Assembly: GCA_030668875.1 (NCBI GenBank)
Contig: DAOVER010000020.1
Span: forward strand, 1-32,000
From: Candidatus Heimdallarchaeota archaeon
Lineage (GTDB): Archaea > Asgardarchaeota > Heimdallarchaeia > Heimdallarchaeales > Heimdallarchaeaceae
Direction of reading: 5' to 3'
Length of the DNA: 32,000 nucleotides
This document shows, piece after piece, positions 4,973-23,056 of the stretch. The notes below the pieces were generated by a model. It was given only the letters and a program-made list of their open reading frames with translations, was not told where the DNA came from and did not search any database. Numbering within the stretch: position 1 is the stretch's first letter; each line of letters opens with the position of its first letter. Made by a program: the position numbers and the translations under genes.

Positions 4973-5722
4973 CTAATCTCTCTCCAATATCATTTCACTA
5001 TCGTCTATGTGTAATTGCAAGCTATCCTCTTCTTTTTCTAGATGAAGCTTTCCTGAACTATTAATTCCTCGACAGAAATATTGATTGCCGTTTTTCAATT
5101 TGATTTCCTTATCAAAATAATTCAATCTGCTATTAAATAAATCAATGATGTTAGAAAAGCTGTTATTGGATATTTCTACAGCAAATCTGAGAAGAGTATC
5201 AGATAATTTAGAGATAAATTTGTCTATGGTTAGATTTTGCTTATTTTCCAATTGAAGACTAATTGAGTTGTTTTTGCATTCCTTTGCAATATCGTCTATT
5301 TTGGAAAATAGATTTACCCCGATCCCTATTAAAAGAAACAATTTATCTCCAGAAAGGTATTCAATAAGAATACCCCCAAGTTTTTTATTACGAAAATATA
5401 TGTCATTTGGCCATTTGGTTTTAATCTCTAATCTGGTCTCTATTTCCAATACTTGTTGTACTGCAACTGCTGCTGCATAATGCATGAACAGAATCTGTTG
5501 TTCCGTTGCCTGTTTTTCTAAAGGTAAAGCATATGTTCCATAGAACCCACCTTTTGGTGATGACCATGTATTCTCTCCTCGACCTTTGCCTGATTTTTGT
5601 TCATCAGCAACTACTAGAAAAGGCTGTTCCAATCCTTCTTTAACGAATAACAAAGCTTTGTCCATTGTTGAATTTAAAATAGGATAATGTATGATGTTTT
5701 TTATTTGAGTTATTGACACCAT
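4973..5722 (-). CDS. birA: Biotin--[acetyl-CoA carboxylase] ligase, no N-terminal HTH
   Basis: Motifs Q.SGKGRGENTWSSP, KWPND, KLGGILIE and GIGVN. Confidence 0.95.
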   Translation of the reverse strand: MVSITQIKNIIHYPILNSTMDKALLFVKEGLEQPFLVVADEQKSGKGRGENTWSSPKGGFYGTYALPLEKQATEQQILFMHYAAAVAVQQVLEIETRLEIKTKWPNDIYFRNKKLGGILIEYLSGDKLFLLIGIGVNLFSKIDDIAKECKNNSISLQLENKQNLTIDKFISKLSDTLLRFAVEISNNSFSNIIDLFNSRLNYFDKEIKLKNGNQYFCRGINSSGKLHLEKEEDSLQLHIDDSEMILERD

Positions 5723-5818: not shown

Positions 5819-7396
5819 ATGTATCAGAAACCTAAGAATATTAATTACAAAAGTAATGATAAGAAGTTTTCCAAGCTCAATGAATTACGTGAAAAAAGTC
5901 AAGAGGGCGGAGGACAAAAACGAGTAAAGAATCAACATCAAAAAGGCAAGTTAACTGCAAGAGAAAGAATAGAGTTGCTTGTCGATGAAGGTTCCTTTGT
6001 CGAAATCGATTCTTTCGTTACTCATCAAAATACTAAGTTCGAAATGTCCAAAACAAAACCATTGGGTGATGGCGTTGTTTCAGGATTTGCTACAGTCCAT
6101 GGACGTCCTATATATCTATACAGTCAAGATTTTACTGTTTTCGGAGGTAGTTTGGGTAAAGCACAAGCTAACAAGATATGTAAGATAATGGATCTTGCAA
6201 TTAAAACTGGAAACCCAATTATAGGTTTGTTAGATTCCGGTGGAGCAAGGATTCAAGAGGGAGTAGATTCCTTAGCAGGTTATGGAGACATTTTTTATCG
6301 TAACACTCAAGCATCAGGAGTCATTCCCCAAATATCAGTAATCTTGGGACCATGTGCGGGAGGGGCAGTTTATTCTCCAGCATTAACAGATTTCATTATA
6401 ATGAATAAAACCAATTCCTTCATGTTTGTGACTGGTCCTGAAGTAGTTAAAGAGGTAACAGGGGAGGAAGTATCATTTTATGATCTGGGAGGAAGTGAAA
6501 TTCATGGTCGTAAAACAGGTGTGAGTCATCTTGCAGGAGACAATGAAGAAGCTACATTAGAATTAACCAAGAAACTTCTTTCATATTTACCAGCTAACAA
6601 TCTAGATGACCCACCCTCAATTAATGTTGATCTAAAAGAATTAGAAGAGGTAAATTTGTCCAGTTATATTCCAGGGGAAGAGAATGAACCCTATAATATG
6701 AAATCTATCATAGACAAAGTCGTTGATCCTAATAGTTTTTTTGAGCTTTCACCAGAATGGTCTAAGAATATCATTATAGGTTTTGCACGATTTAATGGAA
6801 GTACAACAGGGATTATTGCAAACCAACCATTATTTCTAGGTGGAGCTATTGATTTTAATGCAGCGGATAAAGCTTCAAGATTCATAAGATTCTGTGATTC
6901 CTTTAACATTCCTATTATAACTTTTGTTGATGTTCCTGGTTTCCTTCCAGGAATTAAACAAGAACATGAAGGGATAATTAGGCACGGAGCTAAATTGCTT
7001 TATGCTTATTCTGAAGCAACTGTTCCTAAAATATCCATTATAGTAAGAAAAGCTTACGGTGGAGCATATATCGTAATGGGCTCCAAACATTTGGGAACAG
7101 ATATCAATTTAGCTTGGCCAACAGCTGAAATAGCTGTGATGGGTGCAGAAGCTGCATGTAGAATCATCTACCGTTCGAAGCTTAAAACTGTAGAAAATCC
7201 AGCTGAAACATTAAAGAAATTTACAAAAGATTTCAAGGAAGAATTTGCCAATCCATATCAAGCAGCAGAATTAGGGTATATCGATAGAGTGATTCTACCA
7301 GAAGAAACGAGGAAGGAAATTGTAAACGCTCTAAGCTTACTACATAACAAGAGAGAACAGACTCCAAAAAGAAAACATGGAATCCCTCCAGTTTGA
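5819..7396 (+). CDS. pccB: Acyl-CoA carboxylase carboxyltransferase subunit (PccB-type fused CT)
   Basis: Motifs GKLTARERI, GGARIQEG, GPCAGGAVY, DVPGFLPG..QE..GIIRHGAK, RKAYGGAY and KHG..P at the C-terminus. Confidence 0.95.
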   Translation: MYQKPKNINYKSNDKKFSKLNELREKSQEGGGQKRVKNQHQKGKLTARERIELLVDEGSFVEIDSFVTHQNTKFEMSKTKPLGDGVVSGFATVHGRPIYLYSQDFTVFGGSLGKAQANKICKIMDLAIKTGNPIIGLLDSGGARIQEGVDSLAGYGDIFYRNTQASGVIPQISVILGPCAGGAVYSPALTDFIIMNKTNSFMFVTGPEVVKEVTGEEVSFYDLGGSEIHGRKTGVSHLAGDNEEATLELTKKLLSYLPANNLDDPPSINVDLKELEEVNLSSYIPGEENEPYNMKSIIDKVVDPNSFFELSPEWSKNIIIGFARFNGSTTGIIANQPLFLGGAIDFNAADKASRFIRFCDSFNIPIITFVDVPGFLPGIKQEHEGIIRHGAKLLYAYSEATVPKISIIVRKAYGGAYIVMGSKHLGTDINLAWPTAEIAVMGAEAACRIIYRSKLKTVENPAETLKKFTKDFKEEFANPYQAAELGYIDRVILPEETRKEIVNALSLLHNKREQTPKRKHGIPPV

Positions 7397-7406
7397 AGGT
7401 GATAAA

Positions 7407-10400
7407 ATGAAAACAATTGAACAAATAAAGAAAGAACTTAAAGTACGATATCCCATTTTGGGATATTCACCTAGAGGAATAGAAGATCCAAGTTTATCAA
7501 TAGCCCTTTCATCGAATGGTGGAATAGGTTTAATTGATCTTGAAGGCTTAACAGAAACTAAAACTAAAAAAATTATTTTCAAATGTCTTAAGGAGATTCC
7601 AACAGATAAACAATGGGGAGTAAGAGTATCTAATGAAGAACAGCTGAAGTGGTTATTAGACTTTGATAGTATTCCAATTATCATTATCTCTTCTAGCTTT
7701 GAAAATTATTCAAGGATAGATGAAAAACCTAAATGTAATTGGAAAATCGCAGAAGTTAATAATCTCACTGAGGCACATGAAAAAGCATCACAAGTAGACT
7801 TCTTTCTAGTTAAAGGAATAGAAGCTGGCGGGAAAGTAGGAGAGAAATCCTCTTTCATATTAATTCAAGAATTTTATGATTCTGGTTATCCTTTTCTGAT
7901 TCAAGGTGGGTTAGGCTATTACAATTTAGTAGGAGCTTTTATTGGAGGTGCTATTGGTGTTGTTCTTGAAGGACAACTGTATCTTCTTCCTGAATGTCCA
8001 TTGGATGATCAAACAAAGAATTACCTCGCCAGTCTTGATGAAAATGATACGTATCTGGTTGGAGAGGAATTAGATTTCAAATATCGATTAGCGGGGAAAA
8101 TAGCTAACCAGTCTATTAGAAATTTAAAGAATCTATCTAAGCAATCTGAAAAAGCAGTTGACATTTTACAAACAGTGGAAAATCTAGCAAAAGAATCTTT
8201 ATTCTTTGCTGATGAAAGTGTTAAAAATACACTATTACCTTTAGGTGTTGATGTTTGTTTTGCCAAATTCATAAAATCAAAATTTACCAATTTAGCTTCA
8301 TTTCTGGAAGGTATATCAGTTCTTATGAGAGAACAATTGGATTCTATTTCAAAAGAGTGGCCATTTGCAGAAAATAGTGATTTTGCACGAAGTATAGGAG
8401 TTCAATATCCAATAATTCAAGGTCCTATGGCAAATATCACTGACTACCCGAGTTTTGGTAAGGAGGTTTTAGCAAAAGGAGCGTTACCAGTATTTGCACT
8501 TGGTGGATTACTGAAAGATGAAGCTGAAGCAATGTTCCAAGAAATCCAGAAAACTTTTGATTCGAAGGATGTTTATGGTGGAGGTATAATAGGTTTAGAG
8601 GTGATTAAGGAAAGAAGAGAGGATCATATCGCTTTACTTCAGGAATACAATTCTCCAATATGTTTACTTGCTGCTGGGTCAGTCCAGCTTGCTAAAAGAA
8701 TCCAATCACTTGGTTTCAAAACACTATTTCATGCACCAGCATTGGCTTTGTTTAAAGATGCAGTGGATAATGATATCGAATACCTAATACTGGAAGGAAA
8801 TGAATGTGGAGGTCATATTGGCAATCAAACTTCCTTTATCTTATGGGAGAGTATTCTTCAATATCTTGATTCCATCCGAGACAAAGTAACCAATAAAATA
8901 AATGTCATTTTTGCTGGAGGAATTGCAGATGAAGTTGCATCAGCCATGCTTTCAGGTATGATTGGTTCTCATCTATCAGTTATCTCTCCAGGTATTCAGA
9001 TGGGTACTGGATATTTGTTTACAGAAGAAATCGTAGAAACTCAGGCACTAACCCAATTCTATCAAGAAAAATTGCTCAATTCTACACAGACCAAAGTTAT
9101 AGGTTCAACTGTAAATTCACGTGCTCGAGCAGTACCTACAATGTTCGTTCAAACAACTTTAGAACATGAACAAGAAAGATTGAGGCAAGGATTACCAATT
9201 AGAGAAAGAAAAGAATTGTATGAGAAAGATAACTTAGGAGCTTTAAGAATAGCTGCAAAAGGAGAAATGTGGAACAATGATCATGTTCCAGATGGAGATA
9301 CAACACAATTTGTTCCAATTTCATCAGATGTTCAACTTGAATCTGGAGTCTTTATGACGGGTGAAATTATTGGGAGAAAAAGGAATGTTTACCGAATAGA
9401 GGATTTGCATTTTGATGTAATTCAAAATGGTGAGTCATTCTTAGAAAACCAAATACGAAAAATAGAAACACTGATTGCAACATCTACAGGAACAGATGAA
9501 AAATTGGTTGACAAGATTAAATTGTCTACTAAAAACAAAATTGCTATCATAGGATTAGGCTGTGTTTTCCCTGATGCCTTGAATATTGAACAATATTGGA
9601 AGAATATTTTGAATAAGAAATACTCAATAACTGAGGTTTCCAAAGATAGATGGGATTCAAAATTATACTTCGATTCTGATAAGAATATTGAAGGTAAAAC
9701 ATATTCCAAAATAGGTGCTTTTGTCAAAGATTATAAGTTTGATTCAATTAAATATCGAATTCCTCCTAAAATGGCAGATCAGATGGATGATGTTCAAAAA
9801 TGGTCTTTAGAGGCAACAAGGCAAGCTTTGGAAGATGCAGGTCTACCTACTGATGGAAAAACCAGAACAAATATGGTTATTATAATTGGTAATTCTTTAG
9901 GAGGAGAAATTCAAAGATATACAAATAGAAGAGTCTTTTTCCCTGAAATTGAAGAGGTAATTAAGAATAATGACATTTTCCAAAAGTTAACTGTTTCTGA
10001 ACAAAAAGAATTTATTCAAAATTTAACAGAATCATATTCTCACAGATATCCAGCTGTTACAGAAGATTCCATGCCTGGAGAATTATCAAATGTTATAGCA
10101 GGAAGAATTGCAAATGTTTTCAATTTAACAGGAAAATCGATGACTACTGATGCTGCATGTGCATCTAGTATTGCTGCATTGGATACAGCGATAGCATCTC
10201 TTAATTCTAAAGACTATGACATCGCTTTAGTTGGGGGAGCAGATCGTTCAATGGATGTTTCTACTTATGTGAAATTCTGTAAAATTGGTGCTCTATCTGG
10301 AGTTGGATCCAGACCGTTTGATGAGAAAGCAGATGGTTTTGTTATGGGTGAAGGTGCTGGATTTATCGTCATCAAACGTTTAGAAGATGCTATTCGAGAT

Positions 10401-13400
10401 GAAAATAGAATCTATGCAACAGTATCTTCTATAGGTTCATCCTCAGATGGTAAAGGAAAGGGAATAACTGCTCCAAATCCTGAAGGACCTAAACAAGCTA
10501 TCTCTATGGCTTTGAAAAAAGCAAACATAAATGTTGATGATGTCCAATATATAGAAGCTCATGGGACCTCGACCATTGTAGGTGATGCCATTGAACTGGA
10601 AGTTCTTGATGATGTTTTTAAAGATAGAAATCGAGACAAAAAACTTGCCGTTGGGTCAGTTAAAAGTCAAATTGGTCATCTTAAAAGTGCAGCTGGAATC
10701 GCATCTATAATCAAAACTTCACTCTCATTGTACAACAAATTATTACCCCCATCTGCAAATGTGGAAACACTGAATCCAAAGATAAACTGGGAACAGTCTT
10801 CAGTATATGTCAATACAGAGGCAAACGAATGGAAAGTTAGTAGGAATGAAGTTAGAAGAGCTGGTGTGTCTGCATTTGGTTTCGGAGGTACAAATTATCA
10901 TGCGATTATGGAGGAATATGATAAGGATAAGATAACATTTCTATCAGAAGCTCCAGTAGGGAAAATTGTGTTGACACCAACTTCTCTTCTTGATACTCAA
11001 GTGGGAAGGAAAGAGAAAGAACAGCAAATTTGTTTTATGTATACTGGGCAAGGGAGCCAATACATTGGTATGATGGAAGCTTTAAGCAAACACTCGAACA
11101 TAATAGCAGAAACTTTAGAAACAGCTGAAAAAGTTTGGGAACATTATTATTCAATCAGCTTTAAAGAAATTCTCTTTGGCTCCCCTAATTTAACAAAGGA
11201 AGCTAATAGTCAACGTTTGACAAACACCAAGTTTACTCAACCTGCACTGTTTATTGTGGAAATCGCTCTCACTAGATATCTAGAACAAAAGGGTATCAAA
11301 CCCGACTTCGTTGCTGGACACAGTTTAGGTGAATATTCAGCTTTAGTTACTGCTGGTGTCCTTTCCTTCAAAGACGGTTTCAAGGCAGTTATTGCTAGAG
11401 GAAAAGCCATGTGTAGTGCAAGTAGTAAAACGGAAGGTTCAATGGCAGCTGTACTTGCAACAAGACACAAGGTCAAGGATATTGTCAACCGTGTTAAGGA
11501 TCATTATGTCACTATTGCAAATATAAACTCTCTTTCTCAAACAGTTATATCAGGGGACAATAAGGGGGTTGATGAAGCTATTGAACTAGCAAAAGAAGAG
11601 GGAATAACTGCAAAGAAGCTTAGAGTATCTACAGCTTTCCACTCCAAAATTGTTGCAAGCGTTGAGAAAGAGTTGAGAAAAGTTTTAGCAAATCTAACAT
11701 ACAACAAACCACAAATCCCCGTATTTAGTAATGTTTCTGGAAACAAATATCCATCTGATCCTGCTAAGGTACAACAATTACTTCTAGACCAGATATGTTC
11801 ATCTGTTCAATGGGTAGACGAAATTAAGGAGATTTACAAAGCAGGTGGAAGAGTATTTGTTGAAGTTGGTCCAAAAAGAGCTCTCCATTCATTTGCAAAA
11901 GATATTTTAAAAGACAGAAATGATATTCAAGTTTTTACCACTTTAACTCCAAAAGATGACGAGATTGATAAAATAGGTAAAACAATTGAGAGTATAGAAA
12001 AGACTTCTCAAACTGCTATTGAAGAAACTACTCATGTTTCTGAGAAAACAGACAAACCAGCTGATGCATATCAATCTCCAACAATTACCAAACCATTAGG
12101 AATTGAGCAACTAAGTAAAGATCAAACTTTACATGATTATCTGAAGATGGGTTACGATCTTTATTCCAGATATTCAGGCAAAGGTTCTACAGAGGAAGCA
12201 AAACGTGTAGCGCCTATTCAAGAATCATTCACTTCTAAAATCAAAATCGGTGTTACTGGTGTTGGAATTGGCATGCCAGGAAAGAGTAGGAATGTCTTTG
12301 ATGATGCTAATATAGATGCTGTCCTTTTGGGTGAAAATTTCATAGATTCTGTAGCTGATGAGATAAAACAAGAGATGCTCAATAAGAACATAATCAGATT
12401 AATTAAATCAGCTGATGGTAATGCTTCATTTGTAAGTATCGATGATAAGTCACAAGTAATCAATTTAGCAGGACAGATAGGAGAATTTAATCCAGTTGAA
12501 GATTTTGGTTTAAAACCTAAACTTGTGAATGCTTTAGATAAGTCCTTTCAATTAGCAATCTGTGCAGGTTTAGAAGCTCTAAAAGATGCTGGAATACCTC
12601 TAGTTAAATCTGAATTCACAACAACTACAGGAAAAGTGTTAGAAGGAGAATGGGTTTTACCTGAACAGCTTCAAAATGAGACAGGAGTAATCTTTGCTTC
12701 AGCTTTCCCCGGTTACGATTATCTAGTTAAAGAAATCACTGAACATTTAGCAACTAATTCCAAGAAGAGTTTCAGTAGAGAATTTCTATTTAGAGTACTC
12801 TCAATGGGTCATTCACAGTTTGCTCAATTGATTAAAGCAAAAGGACCAAACACACAGATAAATGCTGCATGTGCTTCAACAACACAAGCGATCGGAATAG
12901 CAGAAGATTGGATAAGAACTGGTAGGTGTAATAGAGTAATTGTTATAGCTGGAGATGTTGCTTCCAGTGAGAACCTATTACCTTGGATTGGAGCAGGTTT
13001 CCTAGTTGCTGGTGGAGTAACAACAAAAGATAAGGTTGAGGAAGCTGCAATACCCTTTGGTAAGAATAGACATGGATTGATTATTGGTTCTGCAGCTGCA
13101 GGATTAGTGTTAGAAAATGAACAAACCTACACTGAACGTGGGGTTAAACCCATTGTTGACCTTATAGGGACATCTTTCTCAAACAGTGCTTTCCATGGTT
13201 CAAAAATAGATGTTAAACACATTAATAGGGTGTTTGAATCCTTCATCAAGGATATAGAATCACAGCACAAGATTACACGAAAAGAGTTAGCTTCTGAAGG
13301 GATGTTTGTTTCTCATGAAACTTATACTCCCGCAAGAGGAGGAAGTGCGGAATCTGAAGTTGAATCTTTAAGGCACATTTTTGGAACAAATGTAGCAGAT

Positions 13401-16400
13401 TTAGTTATTATGAATACTAAGGGTTTCACTGGTCATTCAATGGGAGCTGGAATTGAGGAATGTATTGCAATTAAATCAATGGAAAAAGGTATAATACCAC
13501 CTATTGCAAACTTAAACGAAATTGATCCTAATTTCAAAGATTTAAACTTCTCAAAAGGTATGAAGAGGAGAGCCAAATATGCTATAAGATTAGCGGCAGG
13601 ATTTGGTTCTCAAATCGCTTTTACAGCATTCAAACTTAATACTTATGAAGATAGATATGACATTGATTCTTATGAATCTTGGTTAGCAGAATTAGGTGGA
13701 AACATAGAAGGTTTCTTCTATGACGGGAGAGTATTGAAACTTCGAACTAGCAAGAAATTGAAAAAACAAAGAGAATTGAAACCTGTGGTGAAACTTGCTA
13801 AAGCTCCAACAGAAGTTTCAGAAATCTTAAGGGATATAATTCAAGTCATAGCTGAAAAAACTGGTTATGAACCCCAACTCATTGAAGCTGATATGCATCT
13901 GGAAGAAGACCTAGGTGTTGACACAGTTAAACAAGCGGAGATTTTTGGTACTGTCAGAGACAACTGGGATTTAGGTTTTGACGATACAGTAAACTTAGCA
14001 GACTTCTCTACTCCAAATTCCATTGCAGAGTATATCGGAAGAAATACATCAAAGGTAGTTCAAGCTGTTGAGGAGGTTACAAAATCTGCAATCGTTCAAG
14101 TAGAGAACTTACAATCTAAAGTGATCGCGATTGTAGCTTCAACAACTGGTTATGAACCAGATACTATAGAAAGCGATATGGATCTCGAAGAAGATTTGGG
14201 TATCGATACCATTAAACAAGCAGAAATATTTGGTGAATTAAGAGATGTTCTTGATTTACCAATCGATGATACAGTCAACCTTGCAGAACTTAGAACAATT
14301 AGTGATATCTGTGATTACCTCGCTTCTCAAACCAGTGGAGTTGAGAAAGAAACAATTAACATTGAACATCAAACAGAAACAAAACCTGTTGAAAAGAAGA
14401 AAAGAAAAGATGCTGTAAATGTTGAAAAACTAATAACTGCCCCTGTTCCTTTGAATAAACAAGAAGCCGAAAAAATAGATATGCTTCCAAGAAGCAATCT
14501 TCTTATTGATTTATCATCAAAAACAGCTCAAACTATAGTTAAAGCTTTTGAAAAGCAAGGTGTGAACTACAAACTTTTCAAACTTCTTGCTCAAGAACCA
14601 AATGAACTTGAAAATAAGAACTATGATTCAATAATTATCATTCTACCTGGATCTAAATCTGAGCCAGGTTATATTGATCAAGAGATATACGAGAAGCTTT
14701 TCCTCCTTTTCCAAGGCTTAGAATTGAATTCCAACCAGATTCTTATGGCAATATCCTCGGAGAATTATTTTGGATTTGATAAGGATTCTTGTCCTCTTTC
14801 AGGTGGTGTTTCTGGTTTTATCAAAACTTTGGGACATGAGTTTAACATGAAGATAAAGCATGTTTACTCTGAAAAAATAAGTGAAATTCTTCAAGAAATG
14901 GAATATTGGGATGATTATCTAGAAATATCTTTTCAAAACAATATGCGTTTCACTTTAGTTTCTGCAGATGTTGATGAAAACGATGTCCAGATGAGCTCAA
15001 TATCGGTTTCAGACAAAGACATTATTCTAGCCACTGGAGGTGGAAGAGGAATTACTTTCAAATGTCTAGAAGAGTTGTGTTCAAGATCTAAACCCAAGGT
15101 TGCAATTATAGGAATTGAAGATATATCAAATTATACAGTAGATATGCTTGATTATACAGAAGAACAGCTGAAAGAGAAACGTCAGAAGATGATTGAAAAC
15201 CTCAAAGAAAAAGAAGAGAAAGTAACTCCTGTAATGATAGAAAGAAATTGGAATCGTTTCCTATTCGATTTAGATGTCTTAAGAAATATCAAGCAGCTTG
15301 AGAGCCAAGGAATTGAAGCAATCTATTCCAAAGTTGATGTAACTGATAAAAAAGCTGTAAAACAAGCTATATCAAAGATTGAAGAACAACTACAATCAAA
15401 AGTCACTCATATTATTCATGGTGCGGGATTAGAGGAATCTAAACAATTTAAGAAGAAGAAGTTTGGTCTTTCAAAACTCATAGTATCAGTAAAAGTAGAA
15501 GGAATATGGAACATATTGAATGCTATCGACGAGAAGAAATTGAAGAGATTGATTTGCTTTACTTCTATAGCGGGTAGATATGGGAATATGGGACAAATTG
15601 ACTATTCATTTGCCAATGGTTATCTCTCCAGATTATGTTGGAAGCTAAATCAAGAAGGAATTTCATCTTTAGCTTGTGATTGGTCAGCCTGGGGTAATGT
15701 AGGGATGGCTACTCGGGGTTCAATAATGGATATACTTGAATCTCAAGGTATCTATCCAATTCCACTTGATAAAGGTACAACACTTTTTGGTGATTTATTC
15801 TTTAGTGGTACTCAACCAGAAGTTGTTGTTTCATGTGGATTAGGTCCATTTGAACAATTAAAGCGAACTTCAAGCAAAATTGAGATGAATACCTTACCAA
15901 TGATTCAGAACCTATCATACGAAGAGTCAGTTTTCAAAGGAGAGAAAATAATTTCTACACTTACAGATTTGTATATGAATGATCACCAGATCCAAAACGT
16001 CCCATTCTTCCCTGGGGTAATGGGTATTGAGATGTTTGCAGAGATGTATAAACTAACAACATCAAAAACAGCTGATGTGTTTAAAGATATTGAATTCAAA
16101 TCTCCCGTCAAATTACCAAATATTGATAGTAAGACTGTTTTTGTGAAATATGATGTAGTTTCCAAAACTCTTCAACTTAACTCTGTGTTTATTTCAAAGG
16201 CTGATAGTTCTAGAACAAGAGAAAATGAACATTTCTTTACAAGAATAGAAACAAATGCAAAGAAAATTAGAAGTAGGAAGACTAAACATATCATTACAGA
16301 TTCAAGAATTGAACTCTTATCAAAGAGCGACATCTATTCTGTGTTCTTCCATGGTCCAAGCTTTCAAGTATTAGAGAAACTAGTGGAATTATCTGATGAA

Positions 16401-21948: not shown

Positions 21949-23056
21949 ATAATTTCACCATCTTACTATATTCTCTTAGTGTTTCAATCTCAGACACTCT
22001 TCTTAGGTCTTCAAAAATTGTTGTTGGATTAAGTCCCAAACTATGTAGATTCCTTCCTTTTTCTCTAAAATCAACTTTCAACTCTTTTGATGCGACATTT
22101 ATCAACATGTCTATTTTCTTTGTTTCAACACCAACAGCTTTACCAAGCTCAGAAAAAGGAACAAGACCAGTAGGAATGTCTTCTGTTAAATACCTCATAT
22201 TGAGGGTTGTTGGAGCATCTAATCCTCTATAAAACGGATTGTTGTGTAAAGCATCATAAAGATTATCCTCTTGAAGACTATATCTCTCACATAACCATTC
22301 TCTTAATGAATAAACCTCTACACCAAATTTCCTTGCGATGTTTCTTCTTTCATCGTCAACTTGTTCCATTAACTCAACTACTTCTCTAGTAGCTCCTTCT
22401 CTATAGAAGTCAAATGATTCCTGCTTTTTTATTTTCTCCTTATTTAACAAAGCAATTGTTGGATGAAAAACCGCTCCAATGTTACCTAAACTGGTTATCA
22501 AAAAATTGTCTACAGCATAAAACTGTGGAAAATTCTCATTTAACATTGAAACTACATGGGATGTACGATGATAAGGCAAAACTGATACAGAAATAGAAGT
22601 TTTGATTCCTTTTATATCGCTTAAACCAGGATTTTTTATTCTTGTAGCATAAATCAAAGTATTAGCTTCTGCTACATTTATGTCTGAGTCTAGACCATTA
22701 GCTAATAAAGTATTCATAAATTCTAGACTACCAAAAGTCCTTCCTGGATTTAAGACAATTGTTTGACCTTCTTTAAGATGAGGTGCTAATAACTTAGCAA
22801 CATCATCATGTCCTGTAGCTGTAGTAACAACCATAATTAGTTTAGTTCCAGCTATAGCTTCATTGATATCAGTTGTTACGTGATGTAACTTTCCTTTTAC
22901 TTGTATTTCTCCTTGCAATTCAATGGTCATTTGATCCATTAAAGGAAGAACTCTTTCTGGAGATCTGTTAAATAAGTTTACCTTATTACCTTTACTTGCA
23001 AGAAAGCCTGCAATTGCTTGACCTCCACACCCTGCACCAATAACTGCTATATTCAC
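21917..23056 (-). CDS. NAD/NADP-dependent opine (octopine/nopaline) dehydrogenase family protein
   Basis: GTG start with a GGGTGA SD. Motifs IAVIGAGCGG, LNPGRTFG, N.GAVFHP and RYLTEDIPTGLVP. Its 3' end overlaps the downstream gene by 32 nt. Confidence 0.88.
   Translation of the reverse strand: MNIAVIGAGCGGQAIAGFLASKGNKVNLFNRSPERVLPLMDQMTIELQGEIQVKGKLHHVTTDINEAIAGTKLIMVVTTATGHDDVAKLLAPHLKEGQTIVLNPGRTFGSLEFMNTLLANGLDSDINVAEANTLIYATRIKNPGLSDIKGIKTSISVSVLPYHRTSHVVSMLNENFPQFYAVDNFLITSLGNIGAVFHPTIALLNKEKIKKQESFDFYREGATREVVELMEQVDDERRNIARKFGVEVYSLREWLCERYSLQEDNLYDALHNNPFYRGLDAPTTLNMRYLTEDIPTGLVPFSELGKAVGVETKKIDMLINVASKELKVDFREKGRNLHSLGLNPTTIFEDLRRVSEIETLREYSKMVKLFEKNTWSLHW

Follow-up and report, generated by a model that had tools for sequence, protein, structure and literature searches.

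Are two ketosynthase (KS) domains in one polypeptide both working condensing enzymes, and if so, how do they share the work? This question is raised by a single uninterrupted open reading frame (ORF) in a 32,000-nucleotide stretch of DNA from a Candidatus Heimdallarchaeota archaeon (positions 1-32,000 of contig DAOVER010000020.1, assembly GCA_030668875.1; the whole stretch is hereafter called the window). According to Pfam and NCBIfam profiles, the ORF encodes a megasynthase of the domain order ER-KS1-AT-KS2-ACP-ACP-KR-DH-PPTase (ER, enoyl reductase; AT, acyltransferase; ACP, acyl carrier protein; KR, ketoreductase; DH, dehydratase; PPTase, phosphopantetheinyl transferase). A first-pass annotation, made from the letters of the DNA, had described two KS domains with full Cys-His-His triads on either side of one AT and had supposed that they might divide labour. 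The observation of two such KS domains is confirmed, and its interpretation is partly supported. Both domains are very probably catalytic. As judged from its sequence and a structural model, KS2 is a distinct and very divergent lineage of FabF fold, separate from KS1, from the KS of PfaC and from the chain length factor (CLF). A division of labour between KS1 and KS2 is plausible by analogy with the polyunsaturated fatty acid (PUFA) synthases.

Two complete ketosynthase active sites

The central part of the megasynthase is organized as follows, all on the forward strand:

7377-17465, forward: megasynthase ORF, 3362 amino acids, with ER-like, ER, KS1, AT, KS2, ACP, ACP, KR, DH and PPTase regions
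9534-10931, forward: KS1, PfaA/type I-like ketosynthase, residues 720-1185
10158-10160, 10560-10562, 10662-10664 and 10677-10679, forward: KS1 catalytic codons for C928, H1062, K1096 and H1101
11025-11942, forward: AT, the sole acyltransferase, a FabD-like malonyl transferase with a GHSLG motif, residues 1217-1522
11943-12230, forward: AT-KS2 linker, residues 1523-1618
12231-13646, forward: KS2, divergent FabF-fold ketosynthase, residues 1619-2090, with HETxTP, RGGS insert and GFGSQ
12870-12872, 13314-13316, 13419-13421 and 13434-13436, forward: KS2 catalytic codons for C1832, H1980, K2015 and H2020

The triads first read from the DNA, C10158/H10560/H10677 in KS1 and C12870/H13314/H13434 in KS2, are in codon phase 0 and fall on catalytic positions. 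C928, H1062 and H1101 lie in the motifs DAACASS, EAHGTST and GHLKS of KS1, while C1832, H1980 and H2020 belong to NAACAST, SHETYTP and TKGFTGH of KS2 and match the catalytic positions of FabF. Each domain additionally carries the catalytic Lys (K1096 in KS1, K2015 in KS2), and the single AT is indeed located between the two KS domains. The span 9531-13637, by which this unit had been delimited, is correct in its KS1-AT-KS2 content but not in its boundaries: KS2 starts at about residue 1619 (nucleotide 12231), and position 13637 (residue 2087) stops about three residues short of the domain end. Alignment with HMMER and MAFFT to FabF of E. coli and T. thermophilus places the four KS2 residues on Cys163, His303, Lys335 and His340 of FabF, and the gating Phe (F400) of the FabF GFGG motif is retained in KS2 as GFGS.

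When 1.84 billion cluster representatives (clusters at 50% identity) were searched exhaustively, 551 matched KS2 at E <= 1e-30, nearly all of them within proteins of 2000-4000 amino acids and with the match at position about 1000-2600. These representatives yielded 131 full-length KS2 domains that share 36-73% identity with the KS2 of the window; the Cys is present in 130 of them, and the His, the Lys and the second His are each present in all 131. All four catalytic residues of KS1 are likewise found in 71 of 71 representatives. Judged by these alignments, the conservation of both catalytic sets is far beyond chance. In the 69 proteins with both domains, mean pairwise identity amounts to 47.6% for KS2 and 50.1% for KS1, so that KS2 appears about as constrained as an undoubted KS. 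The distance matrices of KS1 and KS2 from the same proteins are correlated (r = 0.57; none of 999 Mantel permutations was as high), which indicates long co-inheritance. The single KS2 representative lacking the active-site Cys has Trp in its place, with His, Lys and His intact; it could be a truly inactivated copy or the result of a sequencing error.

We weighed these data against the proposal that KS2 is a functional CLF, that is, a non-condensing partner of KS1 that sets chain length or only decarboxylates malonyl-ACP and whose Cys is structural. In favour of this view, the domain was annotated as CLF by Shulse & Allen 2011 (PMC3098273), and it is the second KS-fold domain in a chain with a PfaA-type KS. 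A CLF is marked by loss of the Cys, and usually of other catalytic residues as well. Such loss is not observed in KS2: C1832, H1980, K2015 and H2020 are all present, and among 131 representatives separated by deep divergence the four positions scarcely vary, if at all. A true CLF, taken as a control from the canonical myxobacterial-type Pfa3 (KS-CLF-AT-DH-DH-AGPAT) of another genome (locus L087), displays SAGEDSG at the Cys position, without any Cys, and no Lys at the catalytic column; the alignment method therefore recognizes a CLF where one is present. Furthermore, KS-CLF pairs are adjacent, whereas KS1 and KS2 are separated by the whole AT (the AT and about 430 residues lie between them). 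KS2 branches with FabF and away from the CLF, and its stand-alone paralogues keep the catalytic residues. Given the complete and conserved Cys-His-Lys-His set, the CLF label does not appear to fit KS2, and we regard a CLF function as very unlikely.

Several Heimdall genomes encode, besides the megasynthase, stand-alone KS2-type proteins of 496-568 amino acids that share 44-55% identity with KS2 (L098:8566-10224 and L099:8452-9942, both on the reverse strand, and P0006). Their Cys-His-Lys-His residues and GFGS are retained. These paralogues suggest that the KS2 type may work without KS1 in cis, and they lend indirect support to the idea that KS2 would form its own dimer, not a heterodimer of the KS/CLF kind. 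No lipid-related neighbours were found for the stand-alone genes, whose surroundings were inspected on one metagenome contig and in two Heimdall genomes; the adjoining genes encode an ABC transporter, an aminotransferase, YhhN and a kinase.

A divergent lineage of predicted FabF fold

The AlphaFold2 model of KS2, computed from a 42-sequence alignment, reaches a pLDDT of 90.9 and a pTM of 0.92. Its best 50 matches in the PDB are all FabF or mitochondrial KAS (target TM 0.83-0.90; 19-24% identity), with no KS of a type I polyketide synthase (PKS) and no CLF among them. The modelled Cys is located at a helix start, as in all thiolase-fold enzymes. In profile searches KS2 gave no match to the PfaA model.

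A maximum likelihood (ML) tree was calculated from 23 KS1/KS2 pairs together with four FabF, two type II-like KS (both from one Streptomyces plasmid locus, L095), PfaA-KS, PfaC-KS and CLF references, an enediyne PKSE KS, HMWP1 and two type I PKS KS. The PfaA-KS, PfaC-KS and CLF references derive from one genome only, at locus L087. A split with support of 100 sets the KS2 family, FabF and the type II-like KS apart from the KS1 family, PfaA-KS, PfaC-KS, PKSE, the type I PKS KS and the CLF, the branch of the latter measuring 6.6 substitutions per site. The KS2 family is monophyletic. This phylogeny, proposed as a check in the first-pass annotation, bears out both of its assignments: KS1 had been called PfaA-like, and it aligns to positions 8-466 of the PfaA model and groups with the PfaA side of the tree; KS2 had been called FabF-like and strongly divergent from KS1, and the two domains share 21% identity (35 bits).

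Two other origins of KS2 were considered and rejected. An equivalent of KS_C of the PUFA synthases would cluster with the PfaC KS and be followed by a CLF. KS2 lies on the other side of the tree, and forcing a clade of KS2 and PfaC-KS costs 37 log-likelihood units and is rejected (approximately unbiased (AU) test, p = 0.018, with one PfaC reference). No CLF follows KS2, and a third KS-fold domain was found neither in the megasynthase protein nor in the genome. A duplicate of KS1 is ruled out by the 21% identity and by the positions of the two domains on opposite sides of the KS tree. The same two facts speak against redundancy, in which KS1 and KS2 would act on the same substrates and be duplicated for throughput only. 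All that favours redundancy is the presence of tandem ACPs, which raise flux in related synthases, and the retention of both KS domains in 62 of 62 long family members over deep divergence argues for non-overlapping roles; we find redundancy scarcely credible.

KS2 resembles FabF/KAS II in its fold (target TM about 0.9), in the Cys-His-His set plus Lys, in the Phe of the GFGG gate and in the Thr residues of HxTxT. It differs in its low identity (19-24%), in its location within a megasynthase and in about 70 extra residues distributed over three or four insertions. Invariant hallmarks of the family are HETxTP instead of HGTxT, followed by a three-residue RGGS insertion, GFGSQ instead of GFGGTN, and a conserved EDW. 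In the megasynthase, the Glu of HETxTP is residue 1981 and the RGGS insert spans residues 1987-1990.

These family-specific changes beside the catalytic His may be taken to favour an initiating enzyme. Acting in the manner of FabH or FabY, KS2 would make the initial C4 unit, starting from acetyl-CoA or from decarboxylated malonyl-ACP, and every subsequent elongation would fall to KS1, which is a special case of a division of labour. Using the Pfam ketoacyl-synthase model PF00109, we detected no KS domain beyond KS1 and KS2 in the 92%-complete genome, so that priming would fall to KS1 or KS2. Both KS domains of the PUFA synthases accept C2 and C4 substrates (PMC11962503), and priming roles may thus be shareable. 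KS2, however, has the Cys-His-His-Lys set of elongating KS and not the Cys-His-Asn of FabH, and its matches to the FabH model are weak and restricted to the Cys loop. A dedicated priming role of KS2 is therefore considered unlikely.

A final condensation that joins two acyl chains, likewise raised in the first-pass annotation, gained no positive support, and KS2 has the Lys/His/His/Phe set of a decarboxylating elongating KS. In such a scheme, similar to Pks13 or OleA, KS2 would carry out one terminal condensation, either of two long chains or of one such chain and a carboxylated acyl unit, to yield a long ketone or a branched lipid. The carboxyltransferase encoded next to the megasynthase is of the PccB/AccD single-chain type, which includes long-chain acyl-CoA carboxylases. 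Also in its favour, no product is reported for the Type R synthases, the family described below, and the KS2 family is set off by a very long stem and by novel residues that do not vary. Against this, domain profile searches found neither a thioesterase nor a Pks13-like architecture in the megasynthase, and KS2 directly precedes the ACPs in every family member, as would a domain that iterates. It has the residues of a malonyl-decarboxylating KS, and the AT is FabD-like. The 50 best PDB matches of KS2 are of the FabF type only; enzymes of the OleA type belong to the thiolase/KAS III type and not to the FabF fold. Chain joining by KS2 is, in our judgement, quite unlikely.

An archaeal member of the Type R family

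The order KS-AT-KS-ACPn, which the first-pass annotation had set apart from the usual modular PKS, mammalian FAS and fungal FAS orders, has already been described as 'Type R' architecture (PMC3098273). Type R was defined as one pfaA homologue, KS-MAT-CLF-ACP(3-6)-KR (MAT, malonyl acyltransferase), plus a PPTase, in Koribacter, Solibacter, Elusimicrobium and Roseiflexus. In the same study, KS phylogeny ordered the types, the Koribacter cluster was reported to include an acetyl-CoA carboxylase gene, and no product was known for Type R (Shulse & Allen 2011, PLoS One 6:e20146, PMC3098273). The megasynthase has the same succession of pfaA-type KS, MAT, second KS-fold domain, tandem ACPs and KR, together with an associated PPTase and carboxylase genes, as in some Type R members: the PPTase is fused, and genes for carboxyltransferase, biotin carboxyl carrier protein (BCCP), biotin carboxylase and biotin ligase flank the ORF. 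In contrast to Type R as described in 2011, there are two ACPs instead of 3-6, an N-terminal ER, a PPTase fused at the C terminus and an archaeal host. On the basis of its architecture, taxonomy and Chloroflexota relatives at 46-48% identity, we assign the megasynthase to Type R. The KS-AT-KS2 layout was thus catalogued in 2011, and the window contributes a new archaeal member; what is new is that, as far as its residues tell, the 'CLF' is a KS of FabF fold that is conserved and bears an active-site signature peculiar to it.

The remaining domains of the megasynthase are the following:

8385-9260, forward: ER domain, FabK/NMO-type enoyl reductase, residues 337-628 (TIGR03151, 110 bits; PF03060)
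13821-14336, forward: two tandem ACPs, residues about 2149-2320, with D-T, not D-S, at the attachment motif
15282-15695, forward: KR core, residues 2636-2773
15945-16694, forward: DH, PKS-type dehydratase, residues 2857-3106
16875-17444, forward: PPTase, fused, Sfp-type, residues 3167-3356

Against the omega-3 PfaA model TIGR02813 the megasynthase scores 866.4 bits, below the cut-off of 1010.1; by this profile, KS1 and the backbone are PfaA-like and outside the omega-3 PfaA subfamily. The AT scores 238.5 bits against the FabD model (cut-off 260.9), and the AT-KS2 linker (residues 1523-1618) had no family match in the profile search. Both ACPs read LEEDLG(V/I)DT(V/I)KQAEIF, with Thr replacing the usual phosphopantetheine-bearing Ser of carrier proteins. 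The first about 335 residues (7377-8384), N-terminal to the FabK-like ER, contain a weak second NMO/FabK stretch, which may be a degenerate extra ER barrel.

The PUFA synthases (PfaA-D; Schizochytrium subunits A-C) are iterative and highly reducing, as the megasynthase is predicted to be. Both have ACPs in tandem, a backbone of the PfaA-like KS-MAT...KR-DH kind, an ER of FMN type and two KS domains, active in the PUFA synthases and predicted to be so here. Whereas the second KS of the PUFA synthases is of the type I side, is followed by a CLF and resides on another subunit, KS2 has a predicted FabF fold and is placed without a CLF on the same chain after the AT. A further difference is that domain profile searches detected no FabA-type DH in the megasynthase. 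The enediyne PKSE (KS-AT-ACP-KR-DH-PPTase) is similar in being a PfaA-related iterative synthase with a C-terminal fused PPTase, and KS1 lies on the PKSE side of the tree. The KS1 family nevertheless forms a separate group, and PKSE lacks an ER and has a single KS and a single ACP.

The order KS1-AT-KS2 is present in 62 of 62 representatives of at least 2600 amino acids; fusions at the ends are optional, with an N-terminal ER in about 19 and a C-terminal PPTase in about 36 of these 62. In a Chloroflexia relative, KS-AT-KS2-ACPn-KR-DH is followed by genes for a PPTase, a carboxyltransferase and a biotin carboxylase. The family extends over Chloroflexota, Actinomycetota, Myxococcota and Pseudomonadota as well as several groups of archaea; one bacterial orthologue is that of Nonomuraea gerenzanensis, a host in culture. 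Within the phylum of the window, 50 of 300 sampled genomes gave a KS2-type match (E <= 1e-40): 21 of 27 in the window's own family and 8 of 11, 2 of 3 and 9 of 11 in three others, with none in other families of the phylum (0/21, 0/76). When the 80 nearest loci are placed in a tree, Asgard sequences occupy several deep branches, largely apart from the bacterial ones, with two changes; this tree is unrooted and biased to near matches, and no direction of transfer is claimed. Five Type R-bearing genomes of Chloroflexota and Actinomycetes each encode one to three bona fide fabF genes above cut-off. In these hosts Type R is consequently an extra ('secondary') system, and its product is not readable from bulk lipids.

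We found no later paper on Type R, none that uses the term 'KS-AT-KS', and none that links Heimdallarchaeia to ACP-dependent fatty acid biosynthesis. From a Heimdall metagenome-assembled genome (MAG), Chen et al. 2020 (PMC7472256) noted no more than a PKS, with 'distant' KS domains and PUFA synthases as the nearest relatives. According to a 2024 preprint, archaea seem to be without a fatty acid synthase (FAS) of type I and without a complete type II FAS.

Proposed division of labour between KS1 and KS2

The first-pass annotation had stated that the second KS-fold domain of PUFA synthases is usually an inactive CLF. This is incomplete: according to Ogata et al. 2025 (PMC11962503), PUFA synthases have two active KS (KS_A and KS_C/KS_B) plus a CLF, and the two KS were shown to split the elongation cycles, their use differing with the length of the chain and with its structure next to the thioester. 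By analogy, we propose that the megasynthase is an iterative Type R enzyme related to the PUFA synthases, in which both KS domains are working condensing enzymes with a split of substrates; this full statement seems to us probable, though by no means secure. The genes on which the model draws adjoin the megasynthase:

4973-5722, reverse: biotin-protein ligase family gene
5819-7396, forward: acyl-CoA carboxylase carboxyltransferase subunit, PccB/AccD single-chain type, whose 3' end overlaps the megasynthase start
17471-18226, forward: alpha/beta hydrolase, starting 5 nucleotides past the megasynthase stop, candidate chain-release enzyme
18229-18708, reverse: BCCP
18731-20230, reverse: biotin carboxylase

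Malonyl units would be supplied by the products of the adjacent biotin carboxylase genes and loaded by the single FabD-like AT onto the two ACPs. KS1 and KS2, each presumably a homodimer of its own, would both perform decarboxylative Claisen condensations and, as in the PUFA synthases, would accept different subsets of the growing acyl-ACPs, distinguished by how long they are or by their structure close to the thioester. KR, DH and ER would process the chain in each round of an iterative cycle, and the downstream alpha/beta hydrolase is the likely release enzyme. The product is expected to be a fatty-acyl or polyketide-like chain.

Several points weigh against this proposal. The best profile of KS2, fabF (TIGR03150), matches with 150.4 bits, far under its cut-off of 493.75, and the stem of the KS2 family in the ML tree is long (3.98 substitutions per site). 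The PfaC references for that tree came from a single genome. The chemistry of KS2 could differ from that of FabF, considering the invariant His-Glu in place of His-Gly, the RGGS insert and the roughly 70 extra residues. Which KS would take which intermediates is assigned purely by analogy, and no biochemical data on any Type R enzyme were found in the literature searched.

Carried further, the KS2 type may represent a third, previously unrecognized lineage of elongating KS, of FabF fold and with invariant additions of its own, His-Glu and RGGS, at the active site. Its ancient fusion with a PfaA-type KS would have created a self-sufficient fatty acid synthase with two KS, the sole acyl-chain route in Heimdallarchaeia, with KS1 and KS2 replacing the bacterial specialization into FabH, FabB and FabF. 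We regard this extension as possible but doubtful. If true, KS1 and KS2 stand in for FabH/FabB/FabF in the closest archaeal relatives of eukaryotes. KS1 and KS2 are the only KS found in the Heimdall genome, and the way they share their work hence matters for the question of whether Asgard archaea make fatty-acyl chains, and by what means. The Type R family is very large (551 cluster representatives for KS2 alone), and a conserved, apparently active FabF-fold KS in place of a 'CLF' changes the modelling and mining of these enzymes. Tools that call KS2 a CLF, or the enzyme a PUFA synthase, will accordingly mispredict.

Host genome and related loci

The closest public sequences are from Heimdallarchaeota MAGs (96, 93 and 90% identity), and archaeal Nre is also encoded in the window. 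The stretch has DNA matches in marine-sediment metagenomes of one study, which may be its source; no RNA dataset is listed among the matches.

Next to the carboxylase genes, two overlapping genes on the reverse strand (20419-23056) encode a B12-binding/MutE-like protein (509 amino acids) and an opine-dehydrogenase-like protein (379 amino acids). Two genes of matching size upstream of a Chloroflexota synthase had made this pair a candidate for a conserved cluster. The idea was rejected, as the Chloroflexota genes encode a 4-alpha-glucanotransferase and a thiolase and have no similarity to the pair in the window.

The MAG labelled 'Enterobacterales' to which locus L087 (G002:C49:12000-31500) belongs contains a Type R synthase as well as a complete PUFA synthase of the myxobacterial type, with Pfa1 (ER), Pfa2 (KS-MAT-ACP-KR-DH) and Pfa3 (KS-CLF-AT-DH-DH-AGPAT). 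The loci of this MAG show numerous spurious long ORFs on either strand, and the label 'Enterobacterales' looks doubtful.

In the closed genome of Ca. Heimdallarchaeum aukensis (L011:3136-15676), the orthologue of the megasynthase is present as two ORFs. The first, of 1506 amino acids, comprises ER, KS and a partial AT; the second, of 2653 amino acids, starts with a partial KS and continues with AT-KS2-ACPx3-KR-DH-PPTase. This arrangement is either a tandem partial KS-AT duplication or an artefact of assembly or frameshift.

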